Assembly (NCBI GenBank): GCA_964401325.1
Contig: CAYNYM010000001.1
Coordinates: 1 to 26,971 of the forward strand
DNA: 26,971 nucleotides
Reading direction: 5' to 3'
Source of the DNA: an uncultured Desulfobacteraceae bacterium
GTDB taxonomy: Bacteria > Desulfobacterota > DSM-4660 > Desulfatiglandales > HGW-15
The first letter of the stretch is position 1; each line of letters opens with the position of its first letter. The position numbers and the translations under genes were made by a program. Under the pieces are notes generated by a model, which did no database searches, was not told the DNA's origin, and saw nothing but the letters and a program-made list of their open reading frames with translations. Shown piece by piece: positions 2,328 to 26,971 of the stretch.

Positions 2328-2423
2328 AGGGATTCCTTTGTCCAGAGGATTTGCGGCATCCTCGACTGAATTTATGATGCTCTGGAGGAAAGATATTTTC
2401 TATCTTCCCTTTTGAAAATGCAC

Positions 2424-3491: not shown

Positions 3492-3680
3492 TATTCTCTC
3501 TCCGTTTTTTTATCGCTCAGCCAATACAGGAGCGAAAGGTAAAATTTGAAGAAATATTACAAATTCACTGTCGCTGTTGATCCCCCATATGCCATACCTA
3601 AACGATCGTCATCACCCCCTTCCGCTGGTTGCAGACCAGAAGCGTCGCGTGTTTCAGTTCGGTACCATACACATCGTTTG

Positions 3681-10113: not shown

Positions 10114-10118
10114 ATGCA

Positions 10119-10610: not shown

Positions 10611-10802
10611 TTTTTTCTTCCCCCCCCTCTTTTGTTTCGCTCTTTTCATGTATTCTATCGGGTTGCCCTAAAGTTTTAAAATTCAGGATGACGTTGATCG
10701 AAGGTGCCAAGGGTTACGCTGTGGTGAACTGACGCGAATCCTTGATCCGCCCAGCCCAAGGCTTCATGAGAGAGGGGAACCCGCCCGAAGCGGCCTGAAT
10801 CA

Positions 10803-10832: not shown

Positions 10833-11306
10833 TCAGGGTTTATTAAGCATGTTCACAAGATTTTTCGTCAAATGCCGCTTTTCTTCTTGGGTCATGTCAC
10901 AAAAAAATTTTTCGTGGTTCTTCGATTTCTCCTCCTCGACCTTGACCAGGGTTTCTGTTCCTTTTAAAGTAATTTCTACAAGAATCACGCGTTCGTCATT
11001 CGGATCCCTCTCTCTAATCACGAATCCTCGTTTCTCCAATCTCTTGAGGAGAGCCGATATATTGGGTCCGGAAACAAGCATTTTTCTGCTCACATTGGTC
11101 GTCGTGGTCTTCCCTCCCTCATAGGTACACAATACCCGAAGAACATTATACTGGGGGAAAGTAATTCCGCTTTTCTTGAAAATCGCACCTTGTTCTCTTT
11201 TTAATCGCTCTGCCACACGCACTAGGTTGAGCATAACTTTTTCATGGAGTGTCAGAGCTTTATCATTCCATCTTTCTAAATTCCGAATATCTTCCGAAAA
11301 ATGCAT
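10833..11306 (-). CDS. MarR-family transcriptional regulator
   Basis: 157 aa. GITFPQYNVLRVL, ISALLKRLEKRGFVIR and DERVILVEITLKG match the winged-helix MarR signature. Confidence 0.93.
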   Translation of the reverse strand: MHFSEDIRNLERWNDKALTLHEKVMLNLVRVAERLKREQGAIFKKSGITFPQYNVLRVLCTYEGGKTTTTNVSRKMLVSGPNISALLKRLEKRGFVIRERDPNDERVILVEITLKGTETLVKVEEEKSKNHEKFFCDMTQEEKRHLTKNLVNMLNKP

Positions 11307-11473: not shown

Positions 11474-12316
11474 CTATTTGAAAAGAATCACGCCCGCATA
11501 ATGGCTCTCTATCAAATCGAGCTCCAGGGTTTTGCGCTCAAACTCCCCCAACAGTATCTCAATGCGATAGGTTCCGCTTTTTTCTTCAAGGTTATCGAAT
11601 TTGAAGTCTCCGAAGCTGTCAGTCACGGTCTCGTCAACCTTGTCGGAACCCTTTTTCAATAGCACTACGGAACCTGCGGCACAGTCCGTTTTCCCGTCGT
11701 GCTCGTAGGCGACGCTTCCGGCGATGAAACACCGCGAATAGCGATATAAATTCTTGTAATAGACATGCGGCTTTGTGCCGTATTCAGAATGCAAACAGGT
11801 AAGATTCTCCGATTCGACGACCTCCTGCATTTTGGCATGCTTACCATAGATCACCCGCATCGCGCCTGTCGGGCAGGCCTGAACGCACCGGGGCTCTTTC
11901 CATCCGTTCTCAAGCAGATGGACGCAAAAGGTGCATTTTTGGGGCAGATCGAGATCCTCATTCCACCAAATGGCGCCATAGGGGCATGCATCGACAAGAC
12001 TCTTTTCGCCTTTGGCCTTTTTCGGATCTATGATAACAATGCCGTCATCCCTCCTATAGACTGCGCCTTCCGGGGCTTTTTTGATGCAAGGAGCATTGTC
12101 GCAGTGCATACAGGGAGTGGGCCGGTAAGCCACATCCACCATTGGAAACCGGCCTCTTTCCTTGCGCATGAGATTGATCCATCGGTGGCCATGCCTGGGT
12201 TGAGACATGGAATAAGGGGGAAAATCGTTCCCGACGAACTCATCCTTGCATGCCAGGAAGCAATTATTACAGTCCTCACATTTTTTTACGTCGATAATCA
12301 GGTTCCATTCTTTCAT
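11474..12316 (-). CDS. Pyrogallol-phloroglucinol transhydroxylase beta-subunit-like 4Fe-4S protein
   Basis: 280 aa. [74 protein letters not shown], plus a C-terminal beta-sandwich ([12 protein letters not shown]), as in the Pelobacter acidigallici beta subunit. ATGA overlap with the alpha gene. Confidence 0.9.
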
Positions 12317-15300
12317 TTACTTTCCCTCCCCATATCCCACTTCTCGATCTGAACCAGGCATGAATTATAGGCTGCGGAGTGGGAATTCTTAATCATCGAT
12401 CGACTGGGGGTCAGGAGGTTTATGCAACCGCCACGGTCCGCCGAATTTCCAGGCTCACCCAAGGGGTCATAGATTGCACTGGAAGAAAAAGAGTTGACGG
12501 TTCCCGGCGGAAGTCGCTCGGTCACTTTGGCAGCACAAACGACCGCTCCACGGTCATTAAACACCTTGACCAGTTCATTCTTTTTGATACCGCGATTTTG
12601 GGCATCCTTCGCGGGGATCCTCACAATCCAGTAATAATATCCATCGATCAGGACCCTGTGGTCCTTCACATCGTTAATATAACTGTCCTTCCCATCCGAA
12701 TGGGTATGGAAGCTGAACCTCGGATGGGGTGATAATAACTGCAAAGGATATTTCTCATAGAGCTCCTTGGTATGATGGCCCTCCCAGGATGGAATGTATT
12801 TGCTTATGATTGGCCTCTCTGGGTCGTCCGAATCAAAACGTTTAAGGCTGGAGCATTCAAATTCAATCTTCCCGGATTGGGTTTGAAGGCCTTCCTTGTA
12901 ATTTCCCGAATAGTCTGATGGAAAGGGAGATGGATCCGGGATATCCTTGGGTCGTCCCTCGGCAAACCATCTATATGCACAGGGCGAACGCATTTCCTCC
13001 TTCGGTGGTGGGACAACATAATACCCTTTCTTCAGAAATTTCTTCCAGGAAATGACCTTCGGCAGGTCCGTGCCGTCGAAGTGTCTCTTACACCAATCCA
13101 ACTCTGTCATGCCTTCGGAATAGTAAGCGCTGAGCCCAAGGCGCTCCAACAACCGTGTGAAAATCGCGTAGTCCGGCTTGCTCTCTCCCAGGGGCTCTAT
13201 ACATTTGTGTTGAATATGGATGACACGATGGTTTAATTTGGTATAGTTTCCAAGTGAATAGCCGCCCGCATTGCATGCCTCTCCGATGTCCCATCTCTCA
13301 AAATTGGTGCATGCCGGTAGGATAATGTCGGCAAATTTGACTTCACCCTCCATCCAGATGGACTGGTTCACGACAAATTCCAGCTTGGGGGTCCTATAGG
13401 ATTTAACATAGCGATTGGTATCGTTCATGGTGCCGAAAAAGGATCCCCCATACTTATAATACATTTTTATTTCCGCATGGCCCGGCGCAGGGTATCCGAA
13501 GCGGAAGAACTGGCCCTCAATATTGTTGGGAACTGTTGGAAAGCCTTCACAGCGGCCCTCCAGTATAGCCTCCGGAATCCTCAAACGGGGGACCTTCTGC
13601 ATGACCGTGTTCAGGGTGAGGAGATGGGGCATCCGCTGATAGACATTAGCGGCCGCCCCCGTTGTGGCAAGATCCCCGGAGATACCTCCCTCGGCGTAGC
13701 CCGAGAAGTAGAAGTTAGCGTCAACGGGGGTCCCCATGGTCAGGTTTCCCATGTTGATACCGGGTTTGCCAAGACCCTGCATGGCCATGAGGCAGACCAT
13801 GGACCGGGCCCATTCCGTACCCGTGGCGCAACGACAGGCGCCCCCTTGGGTCTGCCCTGCGCCCCCAGGCGAAAGATAGGTCTTTTTCGTTCCCCACTCC
13901 CTTGCCAGCGCCCGCACATCTTTGGCCGGAACCGTTGTCTCATTTTCCTGCCACTCCGGTGTTTTTGGAACACCATCCTCCTCGCCCAGGATGTAATCCT
14001 TCCATTTTTCAAAGCCCGTGGTTCGCAGGGCGACATACTCCTTGTCATACAAGTCCTCGGTGATCCAAACATAGGCGATCGCCAGGGCCAGGGCATTGCC
14101 GGTGTCAGGTCTGGGAGCAAGCCACTTGCCTCCAAACAGGGCCGCCGTATTGTTGTAATAGGGATCGATGTGCACCATTTTGACCCCCAACTCGCTCATC
14201 CATTGTCGGCGAACAGTGCCCTCGAAGGCACCGTAGGCACCGGGGGCGGATTCAGGGTCACTGGACCAGAACACGATCATGTCGCATTCTTTGAGGGCAT
14301 CCTCCACGGTACCGTAAGGCTCCGCCGTTCCCAGACGCATGCTGTGCCCCCAATGATGCATGGCCCCCCAGTACCATCCCTCCCAACTATCCGGATTTTG
14401 CACAACGGGTGTACCGCCCACGAGCTGCATAAACCGTCGATGGGCGCTCAAATAATAGCCGATATTTCCCCACATATGGTGCGATCCCGGAGTCGTCAAA
14501 ATGGCACCCGGCCCAGAGGTCCTTTTGACCCGTTTAATCTCGTCGGCCACGATATCCAGGGCCTCGTCCCAACCAATGCGTTCATATCCGGAGATCCCCC
14601 TGTTCTCGCAATGGCGAGCACCCTTTGGATCGAAATCAACTCTTTTCATGGGATACATGAGCCTATCAGGTGAATAGATCATGGATTTTGAGGCAAATCC
14701 GTATGGCGCAAGCGTTGTCTTACGAGGGGGACTGAACGTCTTACCCCTTGCCTTAATGGTCCAGGATGCTGGATCGCTCTCGTCGAATTCCACAGGTGTC
14801 ATTCGAATGATCTTGCCCTCTTTCACATAAACAAAGACCGGCATGCCACTAGCATTATTGACATACCGTTTCGTGCCATTCCCCACATCCGTTCCGTAAT
14901 CCGTGCCGATTGTCAGCAGAAGCCCCAATGTCTCCAAGAGCCAGTGCGACAACTCATCGGGACCTTCCAACTCCAATTGGAAATTCTTCATAGCATTAAT
15001 CCGGGTGAGGTGGTCCCAGGGGGGTGACATGCACTCCACCGCCAGGGCCGCACTGTTAAAGGTCATCAAGACATCGGGATTGGGATGGATGCCATTTCTT
15101 GACAGAACGTCCCCGTCTTTGAAGGTAAAATACCGGCCCGCGGAATTATCCTTAACTTTCAATTGCGCAGTAAAACTCTTTTCCTTTAAGCGAGACCTCA
15201 GGGCAGGATATTTTCTGGCGGTCCTATTCAAAAGTTGTTTGATACTAAAGAGCACTATGAGCAGGAAAACCTTATCCACCACTGCTGATTTCCCCAGAAC

Positions 15301-15345
15301 CAGCTTGAATGCAATAGCCTTCAAATTAAAAAAAATTGCTTCCAA
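12313..15345 (-). CDS. Pyrogallol transhydroxylase alpha-subunit-like Mo-bisPGD enzyme (DMSO reductase family) with a ~150-aa N-terminal extension
   Basis: 1010 aa. [34 protein letters not shown] (Ser Mo-ligand motif), [47 protein letters not shown], all closely following the transhydroxylase alpha subunit. TTG start after GGGGAG; exact start uncertain. Confidence 0.9.
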
Positions 15346-15426: not shown

Positions 15427-16119
15427 TTAATCCCCATCGCTCTTTGTGAGCATCTCTGACAACATTGAAAGTCCTGTCACCGCATCATCAGCCCAGGCAT
15501 CCGCACCGATCTCTTTTGCAAATTCCTGGGAGGTAGCGAGTCCCCCGATAATTGTCTTGACCTTCAATTTTTTGTCATGAATCATGGATACAAGCCGCTT
15601 CATATTAAGCAGCGCGGGGGTCATCAACGCCGACACGGCTATGATATCCGCCTGTTCCTTTTCTGCTGTCGCGATGAATTTTTCCAAGCGAACGTCACGC
15701 CCCAGATCAATGACACGATAACCCCCGGATTCAAAAAGGGCGGAAACCAAATTTTTCCCGAAATCATGAATGTCACCTTCAACCGTTCCAATCACTACCG
15801 TCCCTTTTGTCCGGTCTTGAGTGGCCGAGGTCTTAATCTCAGGAATAAGGAGGTCGAAAGCGCCTTGAATTGTATCGGCCATTAAAAGGAGTTCAGAAAA
15901 TGAGAGATCAAAAGAATGTTGGGCTTTACATGCCGACACCAACTGGGGGAACAGGATATCGTTGACTATCTCAATGGCAGAAAATCCGGAATCCTTGGCC
16001 TCAGAAACCAGGCTTACAAGCCTTTCCTTGTCCCAGTCATGAATGGCAGCACTAATGTTTCGGCAAATGTCTTCCCTATTCACATCCATCTCCACTCGCA
16101 CTGATTTCCGAGTCTCCAT
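15427..16119 (-). CDS. Corrinoid (B12-binding) protein, MtaC/MtbC-like
   Basis: N-terminal helical cap domain plus GTVEGDIHDFGKNLV (DxHxxG), VIDLGRDV, SALMT, IGG, IGADAWADDA. Start at ATG 16119 (GTG 16122 or ATG 16089 possible). Confidence 0.92.
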   Translation of the reverse strand: METRKSVRVEMDVNREDICRNISAAIHDWDKERLVSLVSEAKDSGFSAIEIVNDILFPQLVSACKAQHSFDLSFSELLLMADTIQGAFDLLIPEIKTSATQDRTKGTVVIGTVEGDIHDFGKNLVSALFESGGYRVIDLGRDVRLEKFIATAEKEQADIIAVSALMTPALLNMKRLVSMIHDKKLKVKTIIGGLATSQEFAKEIGADAWADDAVTGLSMLSEMLTKSDGD

Positions 16120-17264
16120 CACGAACCCCCTCGGCCTTCGTGAAGCATGATTTTGAGTCTGGCCTGATTTTCGCGGCGCGCTTTTCCCGTATTGGGCGGT
16201 TTTGCTTTTGTTCCCTCCCAGCCAGGGTTGAATATCAGATCAAGGAGATGCACGGCCGGCTTGTTGACGGCCAAGGCTTCACGGCAGCTTGCGCAGTAAG
16301 TCAATAGGTCATGGACAGCTTCCTCTGCCCTGGCTTTACTTATAATCGGTGCGAGTTTAGGATCGACAAAAGCCATCTGGCCGCCCAGACCGCAGCAACG
16401 GGTTTTTTCCCGCGAATACTTCATCTCTTCAATCTCGTACCCCATTTCCCTGATCAAGTCCCTGACGCTTTCTTGCAGTGCTCCTTCAGATCTGGTCGTG
16501 CAGGGGTCATGAAGAGAAAAAACCTGTCCCCTTGCCTTTATCCGCTCCGGCAAACCGACTTTTAGCAAAACATCACTGATAAAGGTCAGCGTCAACTCCG
16601 GCGCATGCTCCCTGAGGGTTGCATAACATTCCGGACAGGCAACAATGATTTCCTTAGTTCCCAAGTTTTTAAACCTATCGACGGTCTCCCCCAGAACCTC
16701 CTCAAAACGGTCCCTGTCCCCTAAATGAAGGGTCTGGACTCCGCAGCAACTCAACACAATGCCGGTTCCCGGCAGTCTTTCCCGAAGATGCTCATAGGTC
16801 TTGACAGTGAGGGAAGGAGAGTATCCGGGAAGGCTGCAACCGGGGAAAAAGATTCTTTCGCATGTATCGGTATTCAGGTCCGGCAAAGCCAATGAAAAGG
16901 AATCGGAAAGGACATAATCCTGGTTTTTCCTGACAAAGGTGTGTCCCCGCAGGGGACCAAGTCCTTCTTTCACCAGTTGCTCACGCAATTGCAGGCAAAG
17001 GGCACCTATATCCAGTTCATTGGGGCAAATCTGTCGACATAACCCGCAGAGGTTGCACGAGTAAACAATTTCTGGATGCTCGCGAAAAAAGCCCTCCTTG
17101 AATTTTTCGGCCAATTCTCGAGGTGAGGTGCAATACTTCTCCAGAAATTTGCAGTTCTTGACACAAAGACCACACTCCTTGCATTCCTCAATTATGGAAT
17201 CCCATTGAGGCAGCACCTCCCTTTCCCGGCAAGACGCTTCCATTTCTTGGCGTGACGCTTCCAT
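16119..17264 (-). CDS. Fe-S protein: two 4Fe-4S motifs plus two CCG (HdrB/GlpC-like) domains
   Basis: CKECGLCVKNC and CNLCGLCRQICP; FFPGC, CCG, ACPEC, HDPC, RCCGLGG, YCASC. Start at ATG 17264 after AGGAG (the ORF track extends to 17339). Confidence 0.88.
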   Translation of the reverse strand: MEASRQEMEASCREREVLPQWDSIIEECKECGLCVKNCKFLEKYCTSPRELAEKFKEGFFREHPEIVYSCNLCGLCRQICPNELDIGALCLQLREQLVKEGLGPLRGHTFVRKNQDYVLSDSFSLALPDLNTDTCERIFFPGCSLPGYSPSLTVKTYEHLRERLPGTGIVLSCCGVQTLHLGDRDRFEEVLGETVDRFKNLGTKEIIVACPECYATLREHAPELTLTFISDVLLKVGLPERIKARGQVFSLHDPCTTRSEGALQESVRDLIREMGYEIEEMKYSREKTRCCGLGGQMAFVDPKLAPIISKARAEEAVHDLLTYCASCREALAVNKPAVHLLDLIFNPGWEGTKAKPPNTGKARRENQARLKIMLHEGRGGS

Positions 17265-17277
17265 TGCTATTCTCCTG

Positions 17278-18654
17278 TTAGCGATTATCCGTAATTTTTT
17301 TCTTGGCCCGCCCGCCGGGGCTGAAGGCTCCCAGACCAACCAAGTTCAGCCGGGGTTCGTCTATGGCTCCGTCGGCAAGATTCTGGCGGATCAGGGGTGA
17401 CTCCAGGATCGCCCTCCTTAAGGACTGCTGAACGTCGGCGCCTATGCGCGTAACCTCTGCCGTAAAATCCAGGCGGTCCTTTCCTTCGGCCCTGGCAATT
17501 TCAATCTGATAATCAACCAATTCGGGTATCCGGTAGAGGGGCTCGTCAAACAGGCCGAAGTAGACCTCGTCTCCATGCCCCACTTTGATCCCTGATTCCA
17601 GACGCCTGCTTATCTTCCCAATCCTGCGCAGGCTGCCGGCTCCGCAGGGGCAGGGTTCGGTAATCCAATGGGATATATCGTGGGTCCTGTACCGTATGAG
17701 AGGCATCCCCTCCCGTGTCAGGGTGGTAAAAACCAGTTCTCCTTCTCCCTCCTCCAGGACCTCGCCTGTTTCAGGCTCCACGACCTCGAGGAGAAGATCC
17801 GCTTCGTTAAAGTGATAGCCATTGTGGGCGTGACATTCCACCGCGACACCCAGCCCCATTTCAGTGATCCCATAATGGTTGTGGACGTCGGCCCGCCATG
17901 TGTCTCTTAGGTGATCCCGCATGGACTCAGAGAGGTATCCGGAAGTAACGAATACGGTTTTCACTCCAAGTTTATCCAACTCCACATGTTGTTTTAACTC
18001 CTGTGTCATCCGGTATATTCGCGGCGTTACACCAAACAAAACGGTCGGCCTGTGTTGGTGTATATGCTTAAGCTGGTCCTCGGCGCTCAGGTTCAAGCCC
18101 GTTTTTACGGGCGTGATACCCTGTTTTTGCAGGCCTTTGGCCAAGAGATCCCCTTGATTGTTAGACGTTCCCGAAGGCAGGATGATCTGAACGATATCTT
18201 CGGTGTCGGCCACCGTCCTCAACGCTGCACCCATAAAATCTGTGATCCGCTCAACATCACCCTGCGTGCAGAACACCCTTTTTTGAGGGCCGGTGGTCCC
18301 CGAGGTCGTGAAGGTCGTCACTTTGGCGATGTCTCCATGGGAACCGCAGAGGAATCGGTTGGGATACGCGGCCAAATCTGACGGATCGGTTAGGGGGATC
18401 CTCGCCAGATCAGACAAGGATCGAATGTCCCTGGGAGTGATATTGTGGTCCTTGAAGACCTGCCTGTAAAACGTGCTTTTTTCATAGACATGGACCAATG
18501 TTTTTCTTAATTCTAACAACTGATATGTTTCGACATCTGCTCTGGTTAGCTTGCCGGGGGTTGATCGACTGATGTACTTTCGATATTCTTCGTTATCTTC
18601 TCGTTTTTTTGCTATTTTTTCATGGAGCCAGCGCTCCAAATAGATGGCGTTCAT
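17278..18654 (-). CDS. PaaK-like AMP-dependent ligase (resembles DVU_1553-family CoA ligase)
   Basis: 458 aa. TTSGTTGP, YGITEMG, GELVFTTLTREGMPLIRYRTHD; N-terminal YQLLELRKTL..S.FY as in the PaaK group. Confidence 0.85.
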   Translation of the reverse strand: MNAIYLERWLHEKIAKKREDNEEYRKYISRSTPGKLTRADVETYQLLELRKTLVHVYEKSTFYRQVFKDHNITPRDIRSLSDLARIPLTDPSDLAAYPNRFLCGSHGDIAKVTTFTTSGTTGPQKRVFCTQGDVERITDFMGAALRTVADTEDIVQIILPSGTSNNQGDLLAKGLQKQGITPVKTGLNLSAEDQLKHIHQHRPTVLFGVTPRIYRMTQELKQHVELDKLGVKTVFVTSGYLSESMRDHLRDTWRADVHNHYGITEMGLGVAVECHAHNGYHFNEADLLLEVVEPETGEVLEEGEGELVFTTLTREGMPLIRYRTHDISHWITEPCPCGAGSLRRIGKISRRLESGIKVGHGDEVYFGLFDEPLYRIPELVDYQIEIARAEGKDRLDFTAEVTRIGADVQQSLRRAILESPLIRQNLADGAIDEPRLNLVGLGAFSPGGRAKKKITDNR

Positions 18655-18684
18655 GATCTCTGTTTCCTTCTTATAAATTGATCG

Positions 18685-20040
18685 CTAGCCGATTACTTCA
18701 GGATAGAGTCTCTGCCCGGTGGAGCTGGTTAAATAATAGGCGCAAAAGGGATAAATTTTGCAATCCGGGGCGACTACATGCCCGCAACACCGCTTCAGTC
18801 GATCCAAATCAATGCTCCAGACGTCCTGAAAGGGCATGCAGCTGATGGTGAGGCCCTGGGCTGCGACCTCTCGGTATAGATTTCCCCAGCAATTACAATT
18901 TGTTGCAGGAGGAAAAAGTTTTTCTTCCTTGGGTTGCCAGTGGGCGTTCATAAACGAACGTGCTGTCTCCCAGGGCGGCCTGCGATCGTCTCCCCGTCGA
19001 CCCGCCCCATCCTTGGCCCGCCTCCTGCCGATGGCCTCTAAGCGTCCGTCCCGAAGGACGAATATGGCGGAGAAGGAACAGTGGGAGTCTTGAGAGCGAC
19101 GGGGCATTAAATTCTCTCCCTTAATCTCTCCCTTTGTTTGCCTCTCGAGTCCCCGGATCAGGTCCGGTATGGTGATCCGATCCTCATCCGTGGGGGGAGC
19201 CGGGAACCTTCCGATATAGCTGATCGGCTGGAAATGAACGCCTCTTACTGTCGGTATTCGGCCTTTGGCAAAACGGATAATGTCGCCCAGTTGGTGGTCA
19301 TTGACTCCCGGGACCAGTGTGGGGACGAGAACAACGCCCAGATGAAAATCCGTGCAGTTGCTGATGGCCCTCTCCTTTAAATCGAACAGGTCCGCCCCGC
19401 GCGTATAGCGATACACCTCATCGGTCACGCCATCAAACTGGAGATAAATAGTGCCGGCCCCGGCATCCGCAAGCCTCCGGAGATAGTCCCTGTCCTTGGC
19501 GATCCGCACACCATTACTGTTAACCATGATGTGCTGAAAACCTATGTGCTTTCCCAGTGCCACAATTTCCGGCAGGTCATCCCGGACTGTCGGCTCTCCC
19601 CCGCTGAGTTGAATGGTGGGAAGTCCTGTAACCTCCAACACACTCTCATACATCCTTCTTATTGTTTCAAGGTCAGGCTCATAGGCCGTTGCAGCGTTGG
19701 TACTCGCAAAACAGACCGGGCATTTCAAATTACATCTCTGGGTAACATTCATGACCATCGTGCAGGCATTTGCCTTGTGCTCGGGGCAAAGGCCACAGTC
19801 ATAAGGGCAGCCATCTCTGACAGGTGTAATGCTTTTCAGTGGACCTACCGCTTCTTCACCACACTCACCCCAATCGATATAATCCTGCAGGGTCCCTCGC
19901 CAAATAAGGGTTTTAAAAGGACCGTGTTCAGGACATTCTTTCTCCAGATAGACATTTCCGTTTTCAGAGACTCTCCTGGCTGAAATCCTTTTCAGACACG
20001 CCGGGCATAGACTCTCCGTTTCTTGCGATAATTTGCTCAT
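18685..20040 (-). CDS. Radical SAM protein, MJ0619/TrsS-like
   Basis: 451 aa. CNLKCPVC (CX3CX2C), QLSGGEPT, YLQFDG, N-terminal CPAC / ECPEHG and GCPYDCGLCPEH Cys clusters, C-terminal MPFQDVWSIDLDRLKRCC and PFCAY. Confidence 0.88.
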   Translation of the reverse strand: MSKLSQETESLCPACLKRISARRVSENGNVYLEKECPEHGPFKTLIWRGTLQDYIDWGECGEEAVGPLKSITPVRDGCPYDCGLCPEHKANACTMVMNVTQRCNLKCPVCFASTNAATAYEPDLETIRRMYESVLEVTGLPTIQLSGGEPTVRDDLPEIVALGKHIGFQHIMVNSNGVRIAKDRDYLRRLADAGAGTIYLQFDGVTDEVYRYTRGADLFDLKERAISNCTDFHLGVVLVPTLVPGVNDHQLGDIIRFAKGRIPTVRGVHFQPISYIGRFPAPPTDEDRITIPDLIRGLERQTKGEIKGENLMPRRSQDSHCSFSAIFVLRDGRLEAIGRRRAKDGAGRRGDDRRPPWETARSFMNAHWQPKEEKLFPPATNCNCWGNLYREVAAQGLTISCMPFQDVWSIDLDRLKRCCGHVVAPDCKIYPFCAYYLTSSTGQRLYPEVIG

Positions 20041-20102
20041 TGTTAAAAAAATCCTCTGTAATCTATCTTATTGTTATCACCTGTTGTCGTTTCCCTCTCC
20101 CA

Positions 20103-20981
20103 TTATTCATTACACCCCAACGGACAGCCCGCCGCCCCGGGTTTGTCCATCATGACAAGGGCGTATCCCAATTTTATCTTTTTGAAAATATCTCGGTAGG
20201 CCTCAAGAGAACACCCGATAGGAGCCTGTTGGTCCTGTCCTTTGGAACTGGAGGTGAGATCTGAAGACAGCCTCTCTAGAAAACCTTCCCACCCTCCGAA
20301 GGTCATGACCATTTTGTACCCCAACTTTTTCATTTCCACGGAATGGTCCTCGACATGGGTTATCTTAAAACCGGCCTGATTGAAAATTCGGAGGTATTCC
20401 TCCAAGGGGCGGGAACCCGCAATGCACGGCACGAGGGGGAACGTGCCGCCGGTATGCAGGCCGCCCTCTTTTGCCTCGGGCACGTCCCCCGTCCGGACCA
20501 CATCCGTCATGACAAACCGTCCGCCGGGTTTCAAGACACGCCAGATCCCCCGAACGGCTTTTCCCTTGTCAGGGAGGATGGAAAAGGAGCTTTCTGAAAT
20601 GACAATATCGAAAAAACCATCCGGGAAAGGCAAGGCCTCGGCATCGGAAACCGCAAATCCGGCCTGACTGCTCAGTCCCTGGACCTTTCCACTTTCCCGG
20701 GCGGCCGCGATCTTCTTCTCAGACAAATCGATTCCGACAACCCGGCAACCGTAGTTCGCCGCCAAGAGCAAGCACCCCAAACCCTTTCCGCAGCCAATAT
20801 CCAAAACAATGGAATGTATATCCGGCGCGGCAAGTCCTGTCACCCTTTGTGTAAGCGGTAGCCCTCCAGGGTGAATGAAATCTTTCAGAAAGGCATTAAA
20901 GGTGTCCGTATCATAAACGGTGGCAGTAGCTTTTTTGAACAAGCCAATGTCGGGATCCTTTGATGAATCATTTTTCCTCAA
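20103..20981 (-). CDS. Class I SAM-dependent methyltransferase (ArsM-like fold, resembles DVU_1556 family)
   Basis: 292 aa. HPGGL..T, VLDIGCGKG (motif I), DAEALPFPDGFFD, VLKPGG, PCIAGS. TTG start overlaps the upstream gene. Confidence 0.88.
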   Translation of the reverse strand: MRKNDSSKDPDIGLFKKATATVYDTDTFNAFLKDFIHPGGLPLTQRVTGLAAPDIHSIVLDIGCGKGLGCLLLAANYGCRVVGIDLSEKKIAAARESGKVQGLSSQAGFAVSDAEALPFPDGFFDIVISESSFSILPDKGKAVRGIWRVLKPGGRFVMTDVVRTGDVPEAKEGGLHTGGTFPLVPCIAGSRPLEEYLRIFNQAGFKITHVEDHSVEMKKLGYKMVMTFGGWEGFLERLSSDLTSSSKGQDQQAPIGCSLEAYRDIFKKIKLGYALVMMDKPGAAGCPLGCNE

Positions 20982-21153
20982 TCATCTTCTCCCCTTTAAG
21001 CATTTTTTCCATGACGTAGTTTTCCGGGATATATTGGCCCCCGCACTGTGGGCACTTCAGGCCCTCCGCCTCTCCATCGACGTCCAGGTAAATTACAGGG
21101 ATTCCTTCTTCAACCATCTTTTGCTTGCATTTAAAGCAATACCATTCTGACAT
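20968..21153 (-). CDS. Small twin-CxxC protein (resembles DVU_1557-family redox/zinc-ribbon protein)
   Basis: 61 aa. WYCFKC ... YL ... CPQCG..YIPE ... KM..GEKMIEEK. Coupled to both neighbours by overlapping start/stop codons. Confidence 0.75.
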   Translation of the reverse strand: MSEWYCFKCKQKMVEEGIPVIYLDVDGEAEGLKCPQCGGQYIPENYVMEKMLKGEKMIEEK

Positions 21154-21154
21154 C

Positions 21155-21415
21155 TTATTCACCTTCTATGATTTCAGAGCGATGAAAGTAACCACTATGA
21201 ACCATGTATTTCTGATCGTTAATAGAGTATTCAACGTAAAAAGTCGCCTCTGATATTCTCAGCTTAGCCAGATACCGGTCTCCGTCAGGCTGATAAAGTT
21301 TCTCTCCAGTCTCTTCGGCAGTTTGGATGACTTGGATAATGTCCTCGTCCAGTATATGCCTTTCTTCTAGAAGCGACGCAACCGGATCACTCTTGATCAG
21401 GTTTATTGCAGCCAT
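21155..21415 (-). CDS. Small hypothetical protein resembling the C-terminal domain of DVU1558-type oxidoreductases
   Basis: 86 aa with an AAGGAG RBS. Pattern E.R.IL..DI..VI..AE.TG..L ... FYVEY ... Y.V..GY.HR recalled from the C-terminus of pyridine-nucleotide-oxidoreductase/dicluster proteins. Confidence 0.65.
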   Translation of the reverse strand: MAAINLIKSDPVASLLEERHILDEDIIQVIQTAEETGEKLYQPDGDRYLAKLRISEATFYVEYSINDQKYMVHSGYFHRSEIIEGE

Positions 21416-21434
21416 AATGACAATCTCCTTGACA

Positions 21435-21483
21435 GTCCGGAGGAACCTTGAAGCATCGATTCACTTCTAGATTCTCTCCGGAC
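21435..21483. other. Intergenic stem-loop (GTCCGGAG ... CTCCGGAC with inner GAAG/CTTC stem)
   Basis: Perfect 8-bp inverted repeat at 21435-21442 / 21476-21483 between the Mo-oxidoreductase stop and the RBS of the next gene. No U-tract. Confidence 0.4.
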
Positions 21484-21494
21484 GGGTAATCGAT

Positions 21495-23589
21495 CTACTC
21501 CACAACATTATAGGTGGGAGCCTGAGAGACGAACGCCTTTCTTACTCTGCAAGCCAAAGCCCTCACGGAAAGACCGCCCCAGGCCGGATCATGAAGGTCA
21601 TCGTTGGTCAAAAGGTTCCCGTTGGCCAATCCGCCCCATTCGTGGGGTAGGGAGACCACCTTAGGATGGATATCCTTGGTCACCGCCGCCTTCATCTGGA
21701 CTTGCCCCTTCGTTGACTCGATGACGATCATATCGCCGGATTCAATCGAGAGGGCTCGGGCGGTATCCGCGTTTATCTCGGCCATAGGTTCCGGGTCATG
21801 GGACCTTAAGCTGGGAGTCCCTCTATGCATGCCGTGAAGATAGTAGAGTGAGCGGTTCCCGGTAATCAAGATCAGAGGAAATTTTTTCACCAGTTCCGGA
21901 TCACGCACTGGGCTCTGGGTGACTTCATAATGCCGCGGCAATGGATCGAGCCCGTATTTTTTCAGCCGTTCGCAGTAAAGTTCCACTTTCCCTGACGGTG
22001 TGTCAAATTTCCAATCCGGGTCTTCCCATTTCTTGAATTTTCGTTTGGCATAAAAAATACCTTCAGGGTGTTTCTTTGCTTCTTCCAGAGATGCATTTCC
22101 CTGGAAGAAGGGATGACTCAAAATTTCGGCCTGTGCTTCATCAATGTTCTTCCATGGCATATATTGGTTACAATTCAGCTTTTTGGCCAGCTCAAACCAA
22201 AATTTCCAGTCAGGCCAACATTCATCAGGCGGTTCAAGGACCTTCTTAACCAATGCCGTCATGGGCCGACCGACGTACTGATACAAGAGTTGCTGTTCAA
22301 GAAAGGTGCATGCCGGCAAGACCAGATCAGCCATTTCAGCCGTCTCGGTCATAAAGAGGTCGTGAACCACCATAAAATCAAGTTTATCTATTGCTTTCTT
22401 TAACTTGTTTGTATCTGCCCACGAAAGGATCGGATTAGCTCTCTGAACCGTCAGCATCTTGATGGGGTAAGGTTTCTCGGTCAGAATAATATCCGTCATG
22501 GCCGCCCCGGCGGGGATACCGCTGAGTTCATCAAGGAGCGGATAGGGATCATCTGTGGGCCTTGGAATTTTCTCCTCAGGAAATCCCGTCTCGGCTAGCT
22601 TGGCAAGGGCTTCCAGAGGCATCAATGAGGAAGCGCCACGGACATCGAGATTGCCGGTGATGGCAATCAATGCCTGGATCGCGCGGCACGTGTAAAAGCC
22701 ATTCTCCAAGCCGTCAAGGGTATTGCCCTGAAAGATGGCTGATGGTTTTGTTGTGGCGTACATCCTGGCCGCCGCTATCAGGTCTTCGGCAGGCACCCAT
22801 GTGATCTCTTCCGTTCGCTCCGGCGTATATTCTTCGATCATCTCAGTGAATTCTTCAAAACCAAGCACATAGTTCTTTACAAATTCTTCATCATAGAGTT
22901 TCTCTTTAATAATGACATGGCACATCCCCAGGGCAAGGGCCCCATCAGTACCGGGCCTGGGGGCCAGATGGATGTCCGATGCCTTGGCGTGAAGGGTTTT
23001 CCTCGGATCAATGGTGATCAACTTGGCACCCTTTAGTTTGTTGAATGTAATGGCAGTCCCTGCCATGGGAACGGATGCCTCAGGATTTGCCCCCCAAACC
23101 ACGTAGCACTTGGTCCCGAGGAGAGTGGGGACAGTATAGTATCCATGAGTCATCTTATGAGCTGACACTTTTGCCCAATAGCATGTTTGGTTAACGGCGT
23201 AAAAAGAAGGGGAACCAAAGCCCATGTTAAACCGCTTTACATAATAGGAAAGGTCGTAGAGGTCACCAACCTGTCCCATATAGGTACACACCGACGCAGG
23301 ACCGAACTTTTCTTTATATTCGTTCATCTTAGTGGAAATAATATCTAACGCTTCATCCCAGGAGATTTTTTTCCATCCCCCCTCTACCTTACGCATGGGG
23401 TGGGTGATCCGGTTCTTTGCCTCGGTCTGGTACCATTCAGGTATGACCTCGGCTTTGATGCAAAGCGGACCTACCACACTGTCCATTACTCTCCACCTTG
23501 ATAGGCACGTTGTCCTTAATGTGAACGTCAATGCCACATCCCGGCGGGCAAAAGAGACAAAGAGTTTTTTCTATTCTTACTTCTCCCAT
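21495..23589 (-). CDS. Mo/W-bisPGD oxidoreductase with N-terminal 4Fe-4S (acetylene-hydratase-like clade), interrupted by an apparent 1-nt insertion at 23486-23487
   Basis: GGAGG-N7-ATG at 23589 gives MGEVRIEKTLCLFCPPGCGIDVHIKDNVPIKVES, then the frame changes to MDSVVGPLCIK..RITHPMRKVEGGWKKISWDEALD. Removing one A from GAGAGTAATGGAC restores about 697 aa. Motifs: LAPRPGTDGALALG, DLFMTETAEMADLVLPA, TPSGKVELY, FPLILITG. Confidence 0.85.
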
Positions 23590-23661
23590 TTTGAATCCTC
23601 CTTTTTTCAGATAACCCTTCAAAACCTTACGTTTTTTTCAATGCGGGGTCATGATTATTGT

Positions 23662-25215
23662 TTAGATCTTTCTTTCTAGTTTTTCCCAGTAGGTATCTCT
23701 GATCTGCTTCTTATTGATCTTTCCCAGGCTCGTCTGTGGAAACTCGTCACGAAATTCCAAAAATTTTGGACATTTGAAACCTGCCAGCTTTTTGCGGCAA
23801 TGATCTATAAACTCCTTTTCATCTCCTTTTTCACCCTGTTTCAATACGACCAGCGCTTGAACGGCCTCCCCCCATTTTTCATCAGGGATGCCTACAACCG
23901 CCGCCTGTGAGACTGCAGGGTGAGTATAGAGAACGTCTTCCACCTCCTTTGAGTACACATTCTCACCTCCGCTCTTGATCATGTCCTTTAGACGGTCCAC
24001 GTAATAAAGAAAACCGTCTTTATCTACTTTGCAGATATCTCCGGTATGTTGCCAGCTCCCCCGGAGGGACTGCGCGGTCTCCTCGGGTTTGTTCCAATAC
24101 CCTTGCATGACGCCATCACCCCGAACACAAAGTTCACCTTCTTCCCCTGGAGGCAGCTCATGATCCTCCTTGTTAACGATTTTTATCTGCATATTGAAAC
24201 CTGCAGTACCTGCTGAAGCCAGCTTTTCCGGTGATGTATCGATATGTTCTTCAAGCCGAATCGCACTGAACAGTCCGCACTCGGTCTGTCCGCCCATATT
24301 GCCGACACGGATACCGGGCAACAATTCCAGCAATCTCCTCAAATGGGGTTCGGGTAGAACCGCAGCCCCAACCAGGATGATTCTCAAAGAACTCAAATCA
24401 TACTTTTGGGTCACCACATCCGGGTGATTGATAATGCTTGGAATCAGTTGAGACATCCAGAGGGAACCCGTTACTTTGTTTTCATCCACTGCTTTGATCA
24501 GTTCCAGAACGTCAAATCTTTCCAAAATTACAAAGGTATTTCCCAGCACAAATGTCCAGAACAGGGGCCACGAAGCCCCGGTATGGAAGATTGGAGAAAT
24601 GATCATGAAGACATCGCCATAGGTAAATCCCATCTCAACAATGAAGACGGTGGCACAGGAAAGAAGGTTTCGGTGGCTCAACATGGTGAGCTTTGGAGTC
24701 CCTGTCGTTCCCCCGGTATGCATCAGACAGAAGATATCATTCATCCCAATCTCTAATCCGGGATTCGTGGTCTTGGATGAGGAGATAAGATTCTCATAAT
24801 TGAGCATCCCCTCATGCCTGTCCCCGATGCATATAACCCTCTGGACACTTTCCATCTCCGGGAGAATAGATCTAACGGAATCAGCATATTTGCTTTGAAC
24901 AATAAAGATCGAAGCACCGGATTCTCGCGTGATTTCCATGACCTCGGATGGGGCAAAGCGATAGTTTAAGGGGGTGATGATGCCGCCTGCCTTCGCTACC
25001 CCCATATAAAGCTCAGGATATTCAAAACAGTTCTCGGCCAGTACTGCCACACGGTCACCCTTGGTTATGCCCAGCTGAAGAAGGGCGTTAGCCAGTCGAT
25101 AGACTCTTTCACTAAATTCCAGGAAGGTGCAACTCCTTCCTCCTGCAACTTTTATTGCAGTTTTTTCAGGATACAACCTAGCATTCTTTTCAACAAAGTC
25201 CGGTATAATCATCAC
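23662..25215 (-). CDS. Acyl-CoA synthetase / AMP-dependent CoA ligase (FadD-like)
   Basis: 517 aa. HTGGTTGTPK, GGQTECG, HTGD..KVDKDGFLYYVDRLKDMIKSGGENVYSKEVE, GKINK. Confidence 0.95.
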   Translation of the reverse strand: MMIIPDFVEKNARLYPEKTAIKVAGGRSCTFLEFSERVYRLANALLQLGITKGDRVAVLAENCFEYPELYMGVAKAGGIITPLNYRFAPSEVMEITRESGASIFIVQSKYADSVRSILPEMESVQRVICIGDRHEGMLNYENLISSSKTTNPGLEIGMNDIFCLMHTGGTTGTPKLTMLSHRNLLSCATVFIVEMGFTYGDVFMIISPIFHTGASWPLFWTFVLGNTFVILERFDVLELIKAVDENKVTGSLWMSQLIPSIINHPDVVTQKYDLSSLRIILVGAAVLPEPHLRRLLELLPGIRVGNMGGQTECGLFSAIRLEEHIDTSPEKLASAGTAGFNMQIKIVNKEDHELPPGEEGELCVRGDGVMQGYWNKPEETAQSLRGSWQHTGDICKVDKDGFLYYVDRLKDMIKSGGENVYSKEVEDVLYTHPAVSQAAVVGIPDEKWGEAVQALVVLKQGEKGDEKEFIDHCRKKLAGFKCPKFLEFRDEFPQTSLGKINKKQIRDTYWEKLERKI

Positions 25216-25249
25216 GCACCTCTTTTCTGTTGGTTATTCGTTCCCTATC

Positions 25250-26971
25250 CTATGCCTTTGACTTATTCGGAGGCACCATATAGGAAAATTTTACAGGTTC
25301 CGTTGTAAACTGCATTTCATCGCCAACCTTTTGGACAATATTATTTTTGAGCCAGTCTGAGTCTTCAGCCGGATAATCCGCCCTCTCATGAAGTCCTCGG
25401 GTCTCTTTTCTTCGAATCGCACACCCCATCGACATCTCGGATACATCCAACATATTCCTGAGTTCTATAGCGTGAAGCCACTCGAGATTGAATCTCCCGG
25501 TCTTTGTCGATATGCACAGGTTTAGCAACTTCTCCTTTCTGATAGCATCCAAAACTTTTAAAGCGTCCTCGAGTTCCTTTTCTTCTCTCTTGTACATATT
25601 ATAGGTAGACATCAATCTCTTGATTTCTTTCCGCTGCTCCAGAGGGCTGAAACCCTCTTTTCGATTTAGGGGTGCCAGGGCCTCCTTGCATATTTCTTCT
25701 AACTGGCCTTCATCGATCGCCTGAAGTTCCACGGATTTTGCGCGATTCGCAGCTTCTTTGCCCGCCACATAGCCCATGGCCATGCAGAAAGGAAGGGCAT
25801 TTCCGGCCAACCGGTCGGCCCCATCCCTGCCGCCGGCGCATTCACCGGCCGCGTAAAGCCCCGGGAGACTAGTTTCACACTTGACGCTGATTCGACTGCC
25901 GCCCTGGACGTAGTGAGCCCCTGGACCAATTTCTATAGCGTCGTAGCGCAGATCCACCCCCGCATCCCTGAGGGATTTATAAAAAGGCACATTATAGGTC
26001 TTCTCGAGAAAACGATCTAAAAAGTTTCGCGGCAGGTGCCTGAGGGAGAGGTAGGCCCCGCCGTGTGGAGACCCCTTTCCTTCACGCACCTCTTTGCAGA
26101 TCGCCCTGGATTGGGCTTCGCGGGGTACAAATTCTTTATCCACCGGATAATAACGCTCCATGAATCTCTCACCCAGATTATTATACAAATGTCCGTAAAC
26201 ATTGTAAAAAAGCTCATAAGCGTATGCGTCGCGGTAAAGATTGGGAGGCCAGAGGGCCGCGGCCGGGAAAAATTGTATGAATTCCATATCACACATCTTG
26301 GCACCGGCCCGGTAGGCCATGCCGTGTCCGTCTCCGGTCAGTGTATTATTGGCCGTGCTGAATTCATAGCAGGCCATGAAGCCGCCGGTGGCCAGTATGG
26401 TGGATTTGGCTCGAACAACCTGAAAATCACCCTTCTTCATGTCTAGACCGACGGCCCCGACCACCTCGTCCCCATTCTTGAGCAGGTCGATCATGGGCAT
26501 GTCTTCCAAGCGAACCACATTTTTTTTTAGCCTAAGCTGCCGGGGCAGGGCTTTTCGATATTCCGCTCCCAAATGTTCACCGGTTTTGGCGTGCATCATG
26601 GATCTTGGGTATGTCTCGCCCATGATTCTAGTTTGGAGGTATTTCCCATCCTTTTTACACCACCTTACCCTCCATTTGGCCAGATCTTCAACGCTTTCAG
26701 GTGCCAGGCTCAGGAACGTTTTTACAAGATCCTGGCGATTGAGGTAATAGCCCGCCTTGAGCGTGTCTTTAATATGCTGATCTATGCTATCGGGAGCGCT
26801 GAGGGCAGCCTGATAACCTCCGCCCGCCATCCACACAGCAGCTCCGTCTTGTCCAATGCATCCCTTGTTTGCCATAATGACATTGACGCCCTGCTGATCG
26901 GCTTCTATGGCCGCCCTGATCCCTGCGATCCCCCCGCCTATCACCAAAACATCCGTTTCAAGATACTCTTT
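25250..26971 (-). CDS. FAD-dependent oxidoreductase of the SdhA/FrdA/NadB fold, 5'-truncated by the window edge
   Basis: The frame is open to the window end (KEYLETDVLVIGGGIAG). Motifs: ILATGG, TGDG..MAYRAGA...DMEF.QF.P, GERFM..Y, HYVQGG, PGLYAAGE, RLAGNAL, RKETRGLH.R.DYP. Confidence 0.9.
   Translation of the reverse strand, partial: KEYLETDVLVIGGGIAGIRAAIEADQQGVNVIMANKGCIGQDGAAVWMAGGGYQAALSAPDSIDQHIKDTLKAGYYLNRQDLVKTFLSLAPESVEDLAKWRVRWCKKDGKYLQTRIMGETYPRSMMHAKTGEHLGAEYRKALPRQLRLKKNVVRLEDMPMIDLLKNGDEVVGAVGLDMKKGDFQVVRAKSTILATGGFMACYEFSTANNTLTGDGHGMAYRAGAKMCDMEFIQFFPAAALWPPNLYRDAYAYELFYNVYGHLYNNLGERFMERYYPVDKEFVPREAQSRAICKEVREGKGSPHGGAYLSLRHLPRNFLDRFLEKTYNVPFYKSLRDAGVDLRYDAIEIGPGAHYVQGGSRISVKCETSLPGLYAAGECAGGRDGADRLAGNALPFCMAMGYVAGKEAANRAKSVELQAIDEGQLEEICKEALAPLNRKEGFSPLEQRKEIKRLMSTYNMYKREEKELEDALKVLDAIRKEKLLNLCISTKTGRFNLEWLHAIELRNMLDVSEMSMGCAIRRKETRGLHERADYPAEDSDWLKNNIVQKVGDEMQFTTEPVKFSYMVPPNKSKA

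Follow-up and report, generated by a model that had tools for sequence, protein, structure and literature searches.

We analysed a stretch of 26,971 nt (the window) from contig CAYNYM010000001.1 of an uncultured Desulfobacteraceae bacterium (assembly GCA_964401325.1), in which all sizeable open reading frames (ORFs) lie on the minus strand. Positions 15427-21415 hold seven tightly spaced genes that run in one direction and are flanked on either side by the gene for a molybdenum/tungsten enzyme of the bis-pyranopterin guanine dinucleotide type (Mo/W-bisPGD). The seven genes include one for a radical S-adenosylmethionine (SAM) protein of the TrsS family and belong to a longer unit of at least 11 genes (15427-26947), made up of a TfrA-like flavoprotein, a CoA ligase, a Cys-ligated bisPGD enzyme (bisPGD2), the TrsS cassette and a corrinoid gene. 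Listed in the direction of transcription, the genes of this unit are:

25250-26947, minus strand: TfrA/FrdA-like flavoprotein with FAD_binding_2 and Succ_DH_flav_C domains (Pfam)
23662-25215, minus strand: FadD-type acyl-CoA synthetase, 517 aa
21495-23589, minus strand: bisPGD2, a cytoplasmic Mo/W-bisPGD enzyme, frameshifted in the window
21155-21415, minus strand: 86-aa alpha+beta protein with no cysteine
20968-21162, minus strand: CxxC zinc ribbon of 64 aa, DUF7479/DVU_1557 type, with four Cys (the 'redox' protein)
20103-20981, minus strand: class I SAM methyltransferase, DVU_1556-like/ArsM-like
18685-20040, minus strand: radical SAM protein TrsS, paralogous to the tetraether synthase Tes, a glycerol dibiphytanyl glycerol tetraether/macrocyclic archaeol synthase (GDGT-MAS)
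17278-18654, minus strand: PaaK-type adenylating enzyme/CoA ligase, DVU_1553 family
16119-17264, minus strand: CCG iron-sulfur (Fe-S) protein, HdrD/TfrB-like, with a dicluster domain and two CCG motifs
15427-16122, minus strand: corrinoid protein of the methyltransferase type, with a B12-binding_2 cap and a B12-binding domain

From the 86-aa gene on, the first two junctions are overlaps of 8 and 14 nt, the next three are gaps of 62, 30 and 13 nt and the last is a 4-nt overlap. The seven ORFs and their tight coupling, given as overlaps or gaps of 1-62 bp in a preliminary description of this locus, are thus confirmed, with overlaps of 4-14 nt and gaps of 13-62 nt. The listed TTG start of the CCG protein at 17339 is over-extended; we prefer the ATG at 17264 because it yields a protein of 381 aa, matching the 381-aa orthologue in the related contig L090. 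The flavoprotein is the first gene of the conserved unit within the window, and an Fe-S partner and transporter membrane genes would fall past the window end. tblastn with canonical C_GCAxxG_C_C, XdhC-type, DVU_1551 NTP transferase, CobC-like, MoCF_biosynth and ModA proteins found none of them in the window, where no intergenic room is left for further genes, bearing out the earlier remark that the NTP transferase, XdhC and C_GCAxxG_C_C genes are missing. Rfam models gave no match to molybdenum cofactor (Moco) or cobalamin riboswitches in the window or in five related loci. We hold the family assignment and operon anatomy with high confidence.

The family assignment rests on a set of curated NCBIfam models: NF045645 (DVU_1557), NF045646 (TrsS), NF045663 (DVU_1558-type reductase), NF045664 (XdhC-type), NF045665 (DVU_1551), NF045666 (DVU_1553), NF045667 (DVU_1556), NF045668 (Mop) and NF045669 (DVU_1555). 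The radical SAM protein matches the TrsS model over its full length at 561.7 bits (cutoff 490), and the PaaK-type ligase matches NF045666 at 348.4 bits (cutoff 300). The methyltransferase falls just under its cutoff (151.4 vs 155 bits for NF045667), as does the zinc ribbon for NF045645 (49.8 vs 60 bits), although the latter exceeds the threshold of Pfam PF24292 (DUF7479; 61.7 vs 27). Model NF045663 describes a 'pyridine nucleotide-disulfide oxidoreductase/dicluster-binding protein' that is normally a fused protein of 759 aa. The CCG protein covers its positions 310-663 at 336.9 bits (cutoff 530), with TfrB as second match, and the 86-aa protein gives a partial match to positions 678-758. By these alignments the two proteins are the middle part and the detached C-terminal domain of a DVU_1558-type reductase whose NADPH/FAD domain is absent. 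Three canonical loci, L066 (Oscillibacter), L064 and L022, served as positive controls and matched all DVU_155x models above cutoff, with scores of 1592.6 bits for Mop (L066) and 1011.7 bits for the fused reductase; DVU_1555, XdhC-type and DVU_1551 proteins also scored above cutoff.

The resemblance to the DVU1551-1559 cluster drawn in the preliminary description is therefore real, with TrsS and the ligase above their cutoffs and the canonical control locus positive, but the window TrsS belongs to a distinct clade. What does not stand is the label of an 'undescribed system', as every component has a curated model, and a 2026 review (PMC13188914) lists TrsS among radical SAM selenoproteins, citing Haft & Tolstoy 2025 (mSystems). 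Literature searches for DVU155x locus tags returned nothing relevant. The module is thus already catalogued, and the window carries a split variant of the TrsS/DVU_1553-DVU_1558-type module; what is new is the longer bisPGD2-corrinoid-cassette operon and its recurrence in other contigs.

To survey the partners of the cassette, a pattern scan with one genome per species was used to collect 80 loci whose TrsS relatives are 41-66% identical, with genes called by tblastn and a simple ORF finder. tblastn with the window proteins found the ligase in 74 of the 80, the 86-aa domain in 66, the methyltransferase in 60, the CCG part in 56 and the zinc ribbon in 46, along with an XO (xanthine oxidase)-family large subunit in 36, a bisPGD2-like enzyme in 4 and the corrinoid protein in 3. 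When tungsten aldehyde oxidoreductase (AOR), Mop and intact bisPGD queries were added, a Mo/W-pterin enzyme was present in 43/80 TrsS-selected loci; 39 of these had an XO-type, 5 an AOR-type and 4 a bisPGD-type enzyme, some loci having more than one type. By comparison, a crude background of 80 unrelated corrinoid loci (660 kb) yielded a single bisPGD gene and neither an XO nor an AOR gene. When 89 loci were later counted, 51 had a Mo/W gene, and in 48 of these it lay within 1.5 kb of the cassette edge. Individual arrangements include an AOR gene on both sides of the cassette in L085 (Chloroflexota) and a cassette that follows AOR and bisPGD2-like genes in L078 (Thermincola). About ten Dehalococcoidia loci, however, have a cassette with no Mo/W gene within 6-10 kb, its neighbours there being major facilitator superfamily transporters, a CoA-disulfide-reductase-rhodanese protein, TauE and DsbA, and Methanomassiliicoccales keep TrsS and the ligase only.

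A distance tree of TrsS resolves two clades. Clade I is the Desulfovibrio type, with Mop, the fused reductase and C_GCAxxG_C_C, and its genes follow the order MoCF_biosynth protein, Mop, cassette, XdhC type, MocA-like NTP transferase, CobC-like phosphatase, and ModA or a regulator. Clade II, in which the window falls within a monophyletic subclade, is mostly from Chloroflexota and Desulfobacterota and has a free 86-aa gene. Across the loci we counted C_GCAxxG_C_C in 49, the XdhC type in 35, the DVU_1551 MocA-like NTP transferase in 31, MoCF_biosynth in 14 and ModA in 4, and in L002, L078 and L083 the cassette has FmdE-MoCF_biosynth genes nearby. The CobC-like histidine phosphatase (alpha-ribazole phosphatase family) is itself a conserved member of the canonical cluster, found in 31 clade I loci after the XdhC-type and NTP-transferase genes (for example L064 14785-15426 and L022 14829-15443). 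A Mo/W enzyme occurs in 43/80 loci vs 1/80 in the background, the two directly adjoin one another and each TrsS clade has its own partner family, which together argue for a functional tie between the module and a Mo/W enzyme. The preliminary description had named beforehand three outcomes that would speak against it, namely proteins without hits to DVU155x families, unconserved co-occurrence and no association with molybdoenzymes; we found DVU155x matches, conserved co-occurrence and the association just given.

One way to account for such a tie, already put forward in the preliminary description, is that the cassette matures the cofactor or active site, that is, builds, modifies, repairs or inserts a pterin or metal-sulfur (or selenium) feature for the Mo/W enzyme. 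An intermediate adenylated by the ligase would then undergo radical chemistry at TrsS, and the redox reactions of sulfur or selenium would fall to the CCG and CxxC proteins. Cassettes adjoin XO-type Mop, tungsten AOR and bisPGD enzymes, which are unrelated families; the clade I cassette is set among Mop and Moco-assembly genes; the FmdE-MoCF_biosynth genes stand near three cassettes; those bisPGD2 homologues of at least 53% identity that were examined adjoin a cassette; and some TrsS proteins are selenoproteins, all of which is consistent with maturation. A radical SAM enzyme, a methyltransferase and an adenylating enzyme are, moreover, a typical set for cofactor assembly, as in the iron-guanylylpyridinol (FeGP) cofactor and Moco, and we count this in its favor. 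The stand-alone Dehalococcoidia cassettes and the lone TrsS-ligase pairs of Methanomassiliicoccales argue against it, as do the importer-linked catabolic genes of the window operon (CoA ligase and TfrA-like enzyme). The cassette-linked Mop is orthologous to the crystallized Desulfovibrio MOP (1DGJ, 1VLB). Native MOP contains the ordinary molybdopterin cytosine dinucleotide (MCD) cofactor, which also speaks against maturation. The precedent of MJ0619 as a pterin methylase has also been replaced by a lipid synthase function (see below). Maturation is, on this evidence, unlikely, but it retains real weight.

The larger operon bears on the same question. A unit of 11 to 12 genes recurs in at least 10 other contigs, with a gene order common to L081, L082, L083, L084, L090 and L174: an importer, a TfrB-N-like Fe-S protein, the TfrA-like flavoprotein, the FadD-type CoA ligase and bisPGD2, followed by the 86-aa protein, zinc ribbon, methyltransferase, TrsS, ligase, CCG protein (with or without the FAD domain), corrinoid protein and usually MarR. 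L081-L084 are independent contigs with TrsS proteins ~59-84% identical to that of the window, the 86-aa and methyltransferase proteins of L090 are 92-93% identical, and L174 was found independently through bisPGD2 homologues at 53-55% identity. As the order repeats in independent contigs, the cassette arrangement is not due to chance. The importer is of the tripartite ATP-independent periplasmic (TRAP) type in these relatives, except in L174, where it is an ATP-binding cassette (ABC) system. Such transporter genes that switch type yet persist, together with MarR, form a pattern typical of a substrate-conversion operon, and the gene content of the window operon (importer, CoA ligase, enoate/fumarate-reductase-like enzyme, MarR) likewise looks like substrate conversion. 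The FadD-type CoA ligase (PRK06187, 477.4 bits vs 476 cutoff; Pfam AMP-binding and AMP-binding_C) is syntenic in L082, L083, L084, L090, L172 and L174, and the TfrA-like flavoprotein, whose best NCBIfam match is the thiol:fumarate reductase TfrA (398 bits, under the 718 cutoff), takes the same position in all six.

Both flanking enzymes (12313-15345 and 21495-23589) are of the bisPGD type, as first described, but only the one at 21495-23589 is a conserved partner. In this enzyme, bisPGD2, a 4Fe-4S motif is found at the N-terminus and the metal-ligand position is occupied by Cys; its best PDB match is acetylene hydratase (2E7Z). DNA alignment to L090 and L081 reveals a 2-bp deletion at ~23485/23486 of the window copy, which shifts the frame after ~34 codons and leaves the N-terminal CxxCxxxC Fe-S motif (ATG 23589) out of frame with the catalytic domains. 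Every examined bisPGD2 homologue at or above the 53% level adjoins a TrsS cassette. In a 42%-identity homologue from Candidatus Hadarchaeum (L173, 9001-16423) no TrsS cassette is nearby, and corrinoid protein and MttB/MtmB-type methyltransferase genes lie ~2 kb away, which may be a further bisPGD-corrinoid link or a coincidence.

The corrinoid protein was initially viewed as an addition to the cassette, but its distribution says otherwise. In L015, L172 and the P0191 contig (ENA ERZ1426835), a second module of CoA ligase, bisPGD2, corrinoid protein and DctP(QM) lies intact beside the cassette, joined in L172 and P0191 by the TfrAB-like pair, and the corrinoid gene directly follows bisPGD2 in all three. 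In P0191, a RACo-type activator of 621 aa (Fer2, Raco_middle and RACo_C_ter) comes after the bisPGD2, corrinoid and DctPQM genes, and the TrsS cassette is convergent to this module. Given that this module stands separately beside the cassette, we assign the corrinoid protein to it; the window thus holds two coupled modules, and the corrinoid gene travels with the bisPGD enzyme rather than with the cassette. The protein scores 157 bits against TIGR02370 (under the 215 cutoff), followed by MtgC, MtbC and MtaC, and its DxHxxG/SxL/GG residues D117, H119, G122, S164, L166, G193 and G194 are invariant in nine orthologues. No reductive activator (RamA or RACo) is present in the window. A metagenome scan with the corrinoid alignment recovered only generic corrinoid proteins at 31-41% identity, none of them near a cassette, and we found no paper on the combination of bisPGD enzyme, corrinoid protein, TRAP importer and radical SAM protein.

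TrsS has an N-terminal zinc ribbon (PF23545), a CX3CX2C motif and auxiliary-cluster cysteines, and in 29 homologues C12, C15, C36, H39, C78, C82, C85, C93, C103, C107, C110, C321, C418, C419 and C433 are invariant. Its closest solved structure is PDB 7TOL (E = 3.7e-101, residues 3-314 and 395-436), the MJ0619-type GDGT/macrocyclic archaeol synthase; the role of MJ0619 in pterin methylation, which the preliminary description had taken as established, is thereby superseded. Since the MJ0619-type enzyme is a lipid synthase, the established chemistry of the family is radical attack on an unactivated sp3 carbon, not pterin methylation. Position 316 lies five residues before the invariant Cys321 in the motif G-[C/U]-E-x3-C-S-F-S. 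Of 95 homologues, 41 carry Cys there, whereas L016, L017, L051 and L059, all from Acidobacteriota, have an in-frame TGA and the whole window subclade has Ser, a pattern that marks the selenocysteine site of TrsS. We looked for covariation between position 316 and Cys131 of the methyltransferase, as for a thiol relay replaced by the corrinoid protein, and found none, C131S being unique to the window. Two or three tandem TrsS paralogues, which form separate deep branches of the tree, occur in several Dehalococcoidia and Clostridia loci (L006-L008, L019, L021, L033, L035, L052, L054, L060, L071 and L073).

The kinship with Tes raises the possibility that TrsS couples two alkyl tails into a membrane-spanning lipid of the branched GDGT (brGDGT) type, with the methyltransferase adding the branches. 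Zeng et al. 2022 hypothesized such a role for 456 bacterial Tes homologues (PMC8941075). The GDGT-MAS match extends over residues 3-314 with all cluster cysteines kept, and some of the homologous methyltransferases match the CMAS lipid-methylase Pfam family. TrsS nevertheless scores below the cutoff of the Tes model NF045702 (380.2 vs 450 bits) and above that of TrsS, and the region of Tes at ~332-451 is unaligned. The examined loci contain no lipid-biosynthesis genes, the neighbors being redox proteins, Mo/W enzymes and CoA ligases. Among producers of diabolic or iso-diabolic acid, Tes homologues went undetected outside Acidobacteria and were found in just 3 of 14 acidobacterial ones (PMC13159169). 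With redox proteins, a ligase, a methyltransferase and three Mo/W families as its context, we disfavor the brGDGT assignment and regard it as highly improbable.

The remaining cassette proteins point toward activation, methylation and redox chemistry. The PaaK-type ligase, a full-length match to phenylacetate-CoA ligase 4R1L, is the most constant neighbor of TrsS, adjacent in 74/80 loci and separated from it by 30 nt in the window. After NF045667, the next matches of the methyltransferase are arsenite methyltransferase families. Its family keeps C131 (83%) and C186 (89%), of which the window has C186; position 131 is Ser here and Cys in L090 (92% identical), L081, L082, L084 and L066. A plasmid tblastn for annotated ArsM proteins, made for a cysteine alignment, gave no ArsM-annotated match; the two conserved cysteines may be equivalent to the As-binding cysteines of ArsM. 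Selenocysteine read-through at the methyltransferase C-terminus was considered, as stop codons align at 281-288, and rejected, as the tails have no conserved extension. The CCG protein matches Pfam CCG and Fer4_17, and both CCG motifs are visible in its translation. C9, C12, C37 and C40 of the zinc ribbon are kept in 88-100% of 60 homologues and are all present in the window. The AlphaFold2 model of the 86-aa domain (pLDDT 85.6) has two helices and four strands, and Foldseek found no significant match for it beyond weak RelE/HigB/MqsR-like ones (E >= 0.008). The zinc-ribbon gene in turn gives a weak match (E = 0.008) to the YgiT (MqsA N-terminal) zinc finger, in a gene order like that of mqsR-mqsA. 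A toxin-antitoxin reading of the 86-aa protein is rejected, as the domain is the reductase C-terminus in the canonical form; for the same reason, the mqsR-mqsA likeness is probably a structural analogy for a docking pair of domain and zinc ribbon.

Several of these features would suit a second role, close to the other model of the preliminary description, in which the module makes or recycles a small thiol similar to coenzyme M or B (CoM/CoB), or methylates sulfur, selenium or arsenic, with the ArsM-like methyltransferase and the corrinoid protein as methyl donors and the CCG protein as a (hetero)disulfide reductase. The nearest named relatives of the CCG protein are TfrB, the Fe-S subunit of the CoM/CoB-dependent fumarate reductase, and HdrD-type proteins, although CCG proteins elsewhere are plain electron-transfer subunits (GlcF, GlpC, LutA). 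The operon encodes TfrA-like and TfrB-N-terminal-like proteins, whose genes in L004 have the CCG gene on one side and the corrinoid gene on the other. Conserved members include C_GCAxxG_C_C and four-Cys proteins, the neighbors in L088 are sulfur-redox proteins (CoA-disulfide reductase-rhodanese, TauE, DsbA), and Cys or Sec occupies position 316 in many TrsS proteins, whereas the window TrsS has no Cys316 and the window methyltransferase no C131. The arsenite methyltransferase matches and the two family-conserved cysteines, with their possible ArsM equivalence, would fit a metalloid or thiol substrate. A corrinoid protein is present and RACo occurs in one relative, yet the corrinoid gene is confined to a small bisPGD2-linked lineage (3/80 TrsS-selected loci). 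We judge this route to be quite unlikely. Slightly more doubtful still is a more far-reaching reading, in which members of all three Mo/W-pterin families would depend on a modified pterin, or on a small thiol- or selenol-type co-substrate comparable to CoM/CoB in bacteria, that the TrsS module makes or recycles, with the CCG protein as disulfide reductase of this compound and the corrinoid protein as its link to methyl transfer in this lineage.

The reading that we prefer, with a probability of about 0.4, is that the TrsS cassette forms a module which modifies a small molecule autonomously and is coupled to a partner Mo/W enzyme, with which it shares a substrate or product. The target of the module would be a small molecule, as opposed to a protein or a cofactor bound to an enzyme. 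The PaaK-type ligase would activate a carboxylic acid; TrsS, as a paralogue of the sp3 C-H-attacking tetraether synthase, would generate a substrate radical; and the SAM methyltransferase would supply a methyl group, here possibly by way of the Co(I)/methyl-Co(III) corrinoid protein. Electron delivery, or a thiol-disulfide relay, would be the task of the CCG protein, the detached 86-aa domain and the four-Cys zinc ribbon. What the module makes or consumes would be shared with a Mo/W oxidoreductase, acetylene-hydratase/formate dehydrogenase-like in this operon and Mop or tungsten AOR elsewhere. Each of these chemical steps is inferred. The stand-alone cassettes, the TrsS-ligase pairs, the substrate-conversion-like operon and the ordinary MCD of native MOP lead us to favor, tentatively and at somewhat less than even odds, a small-molecule pathway over cofactor maturation.

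A number of points weigh against this preference. The clade I cassette, lying between Mop and dedicated Moco genes, fits a cofactor role at least as well, and the swapping of partners across three unrelated pterin-enzyme families points to the shared pterin cofactor. The 80 loci are the best tblastn matches and are biased, several of the metagenome loci having been picked by similarity to the window or its bisPGD enzyme. NCBIfam and Pfam scans found no MT1/MT2 corrinoid methyltransferase families among the window proteins. With its frameshifted bisPGD2 and C131S methyltransferase, the window copy itself may be impaired; the deletion and C131S are either sequencing or assembly errors or signs of early operon decay, with bisPGD2 a pseudogene.

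The question matters beyond this contig. At E <= 1e-30 the TrsS family, Tes included, has 7977 proteins among the scored candidates and spans Bacillota, Desulfobacterota, Chloroflexota, Acidobacteriota and Methanomassiliicoccales. TrsS is the bacterial sister of archaeal tetraether synthase. Since the module accompanies the long-studied Desulfovibrio aldehyde oxidoreductase, solving it would probably clarify the physiological role of that enzyme. The window variant offers a second, independent handle through its different partner and corrinoid protein, and its importer and CoA ligase hint at an organic-acid substrate. If the co-substrate or modified-pterin proposal were true, thousands of 'bacterial Tes homologues' would gain a function.

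Outside the conserved unit, the window encodes:

12313-15345, minus strand: AthL-like bisPGD enzyme, a variable neighbor
11474-12316, minus strand: Fe-S beta subunit of the AthL-like enzyme
10833-11306, minus strand: MarR regulator (NCBIfam, Pfam)
10119-10649, minus strand: XO-family enzyme, 2Fe-2S subunit
7843-10122, minus strand: XO-family enzyme, Mo subunit
5398-7827, minus strand: XO-family enzyme, FAD subunit

The AthL-like enzyme matches pyrogallol hydroxytransferase 4V4C at 1047.7 bits over residues 160-1005, the pair carries the Pfam domains AhtL-like_1st (large subunit) and Fer4_11 (beta subunit), and among the examined loci it is confined to the window and to L090 and L081, the two contigs most closely related to it. 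An N-terminal extension of ~155 aa (residues 1-155) has no counterpart in the crystallized Pelobacter enzyme, and protein lengths suggest that it is also present in L090 (1010 aa) and L081 (1020 aa). The arrangement of MarR and xanthine dehydrogenase-type genes is shared with L084, where it follows the corrinoid gene. The XO-family Mo subunit, ~5 kb from the cassette, is not of the Mop type (NF045668, 254.7 vs 1100 cutoff). The 809-aa FAD subunit contains a GltD-like NADPH/Fe-S domain (Fer4_20 and Pyr_redox_2) between FAD_binding_5 and CO_deh_flav_C, a domain set shared with an 814-aa protein of L084, which suggests direct NAD(P)H coupling or bifurcation. Near the start of the window, ~640-1900 and 2340-3600 form a 100% identical tandem duplication with a 1700-nt period, encoding two identical 355-aa TRAP solute-binding proteins (DctP; 724-1791 and 2424-3491) whose upstream 300 nt are 90-98% identical; this duplication is either very recent or an assembly artefact.

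Among known systems, the DVU_155x neighborhood is the nearest, as the window retains its order of 86-aa domain, zinc ribbon, methyltransferase, TrsS and ligase. It differs in having no Mop, XdhC, NTP transferase, CobC-like phosphatase or C_GCAxxG_C_C genes, a split reductase lacking the NADPH/FAD part, Ser in place of Cys/Sec316, a TrsS of the other clade, and, as partner, a bisPGD enzyme accompanied by a corrinoid protein, a TfrA-like flavoprotein and a CoA ligase. TrsS resembles Tes/GDGT-MAS (7TOL, 7TOM) in its radical SAM subfamily, PF23545 domain, CX3CX2C motif and retained auxiliary-cluster cysteines, but is ~75 residues shorter, leaves the middle/C-terminal substrate region of Tes (~332-451) unaligned and has no lipid genes around it.

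The partner bisPGD2 is, like acetylene hydratase (2E7Z) and FdhF, a cytoplasmic protein of ~700 aa with an N-terminal 4Fe-4S motif and a Cys aligned to the W/Mo ligand. In the alignments, the residue after the second Fe-S cysteine is Pro instead of the Asp of the hydratase, and the one after the ligand Cys is Tyr instead of the His of formate dehydrogenase. These Asp and His residues are catalytic signatures of the two enzymes. BisPGD2 probably represents a distinct, uncharacterized subfamily. The other flanking enzyme resembles pyrogallol-phloroglucinol transhydroxylase, with a large subunit homologous to AthL over its full length and an Fe-S beta subunit, both known here from sequence.

The corrinoid protein shares with the corrinoid methyltransferase systems (MtaABC, MtbC/MtgC, O-demethylases) the two-domain architecture, the DxHxxG/SxL/GG motif and, in one relative, RACo. 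Unlike them, it scores below every equivalog cutoff, and the window has no MtaB, MttB, MtgB, MtaA/URO-D type or activator, its sole methyltransferase being a class I SAM enzyme. Class B cobalamin-dependent radical SAM methylases offer a further comparison, in that the window operon encodes both a radical SAM enzyme and a cobalamin-binding domain, which would allow methyl-Co(III) to quench a substrate radical. However, the B12 domain is here a separate protein (15427-16122) encoded three genes away that travels with the bisPGD gene and is present in 3/80 loci, and TrsS lies outside the class B lineage, with a zinc ribbon at its N-terminus in place of a fused cobalamin-binding domain. The likeness to TfrAB and HdrD, finally, is spread over three genes: the flavoprotein has TfrA as best match, a 188-aa Fe-S protein of the relatives matches TfrB positions 5-147 and the CCG protein matches positions 163-459. 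The scores are far under the cutoffs, and the CCG protein belongs to the cassette even where no flavoprotein accompanies it.

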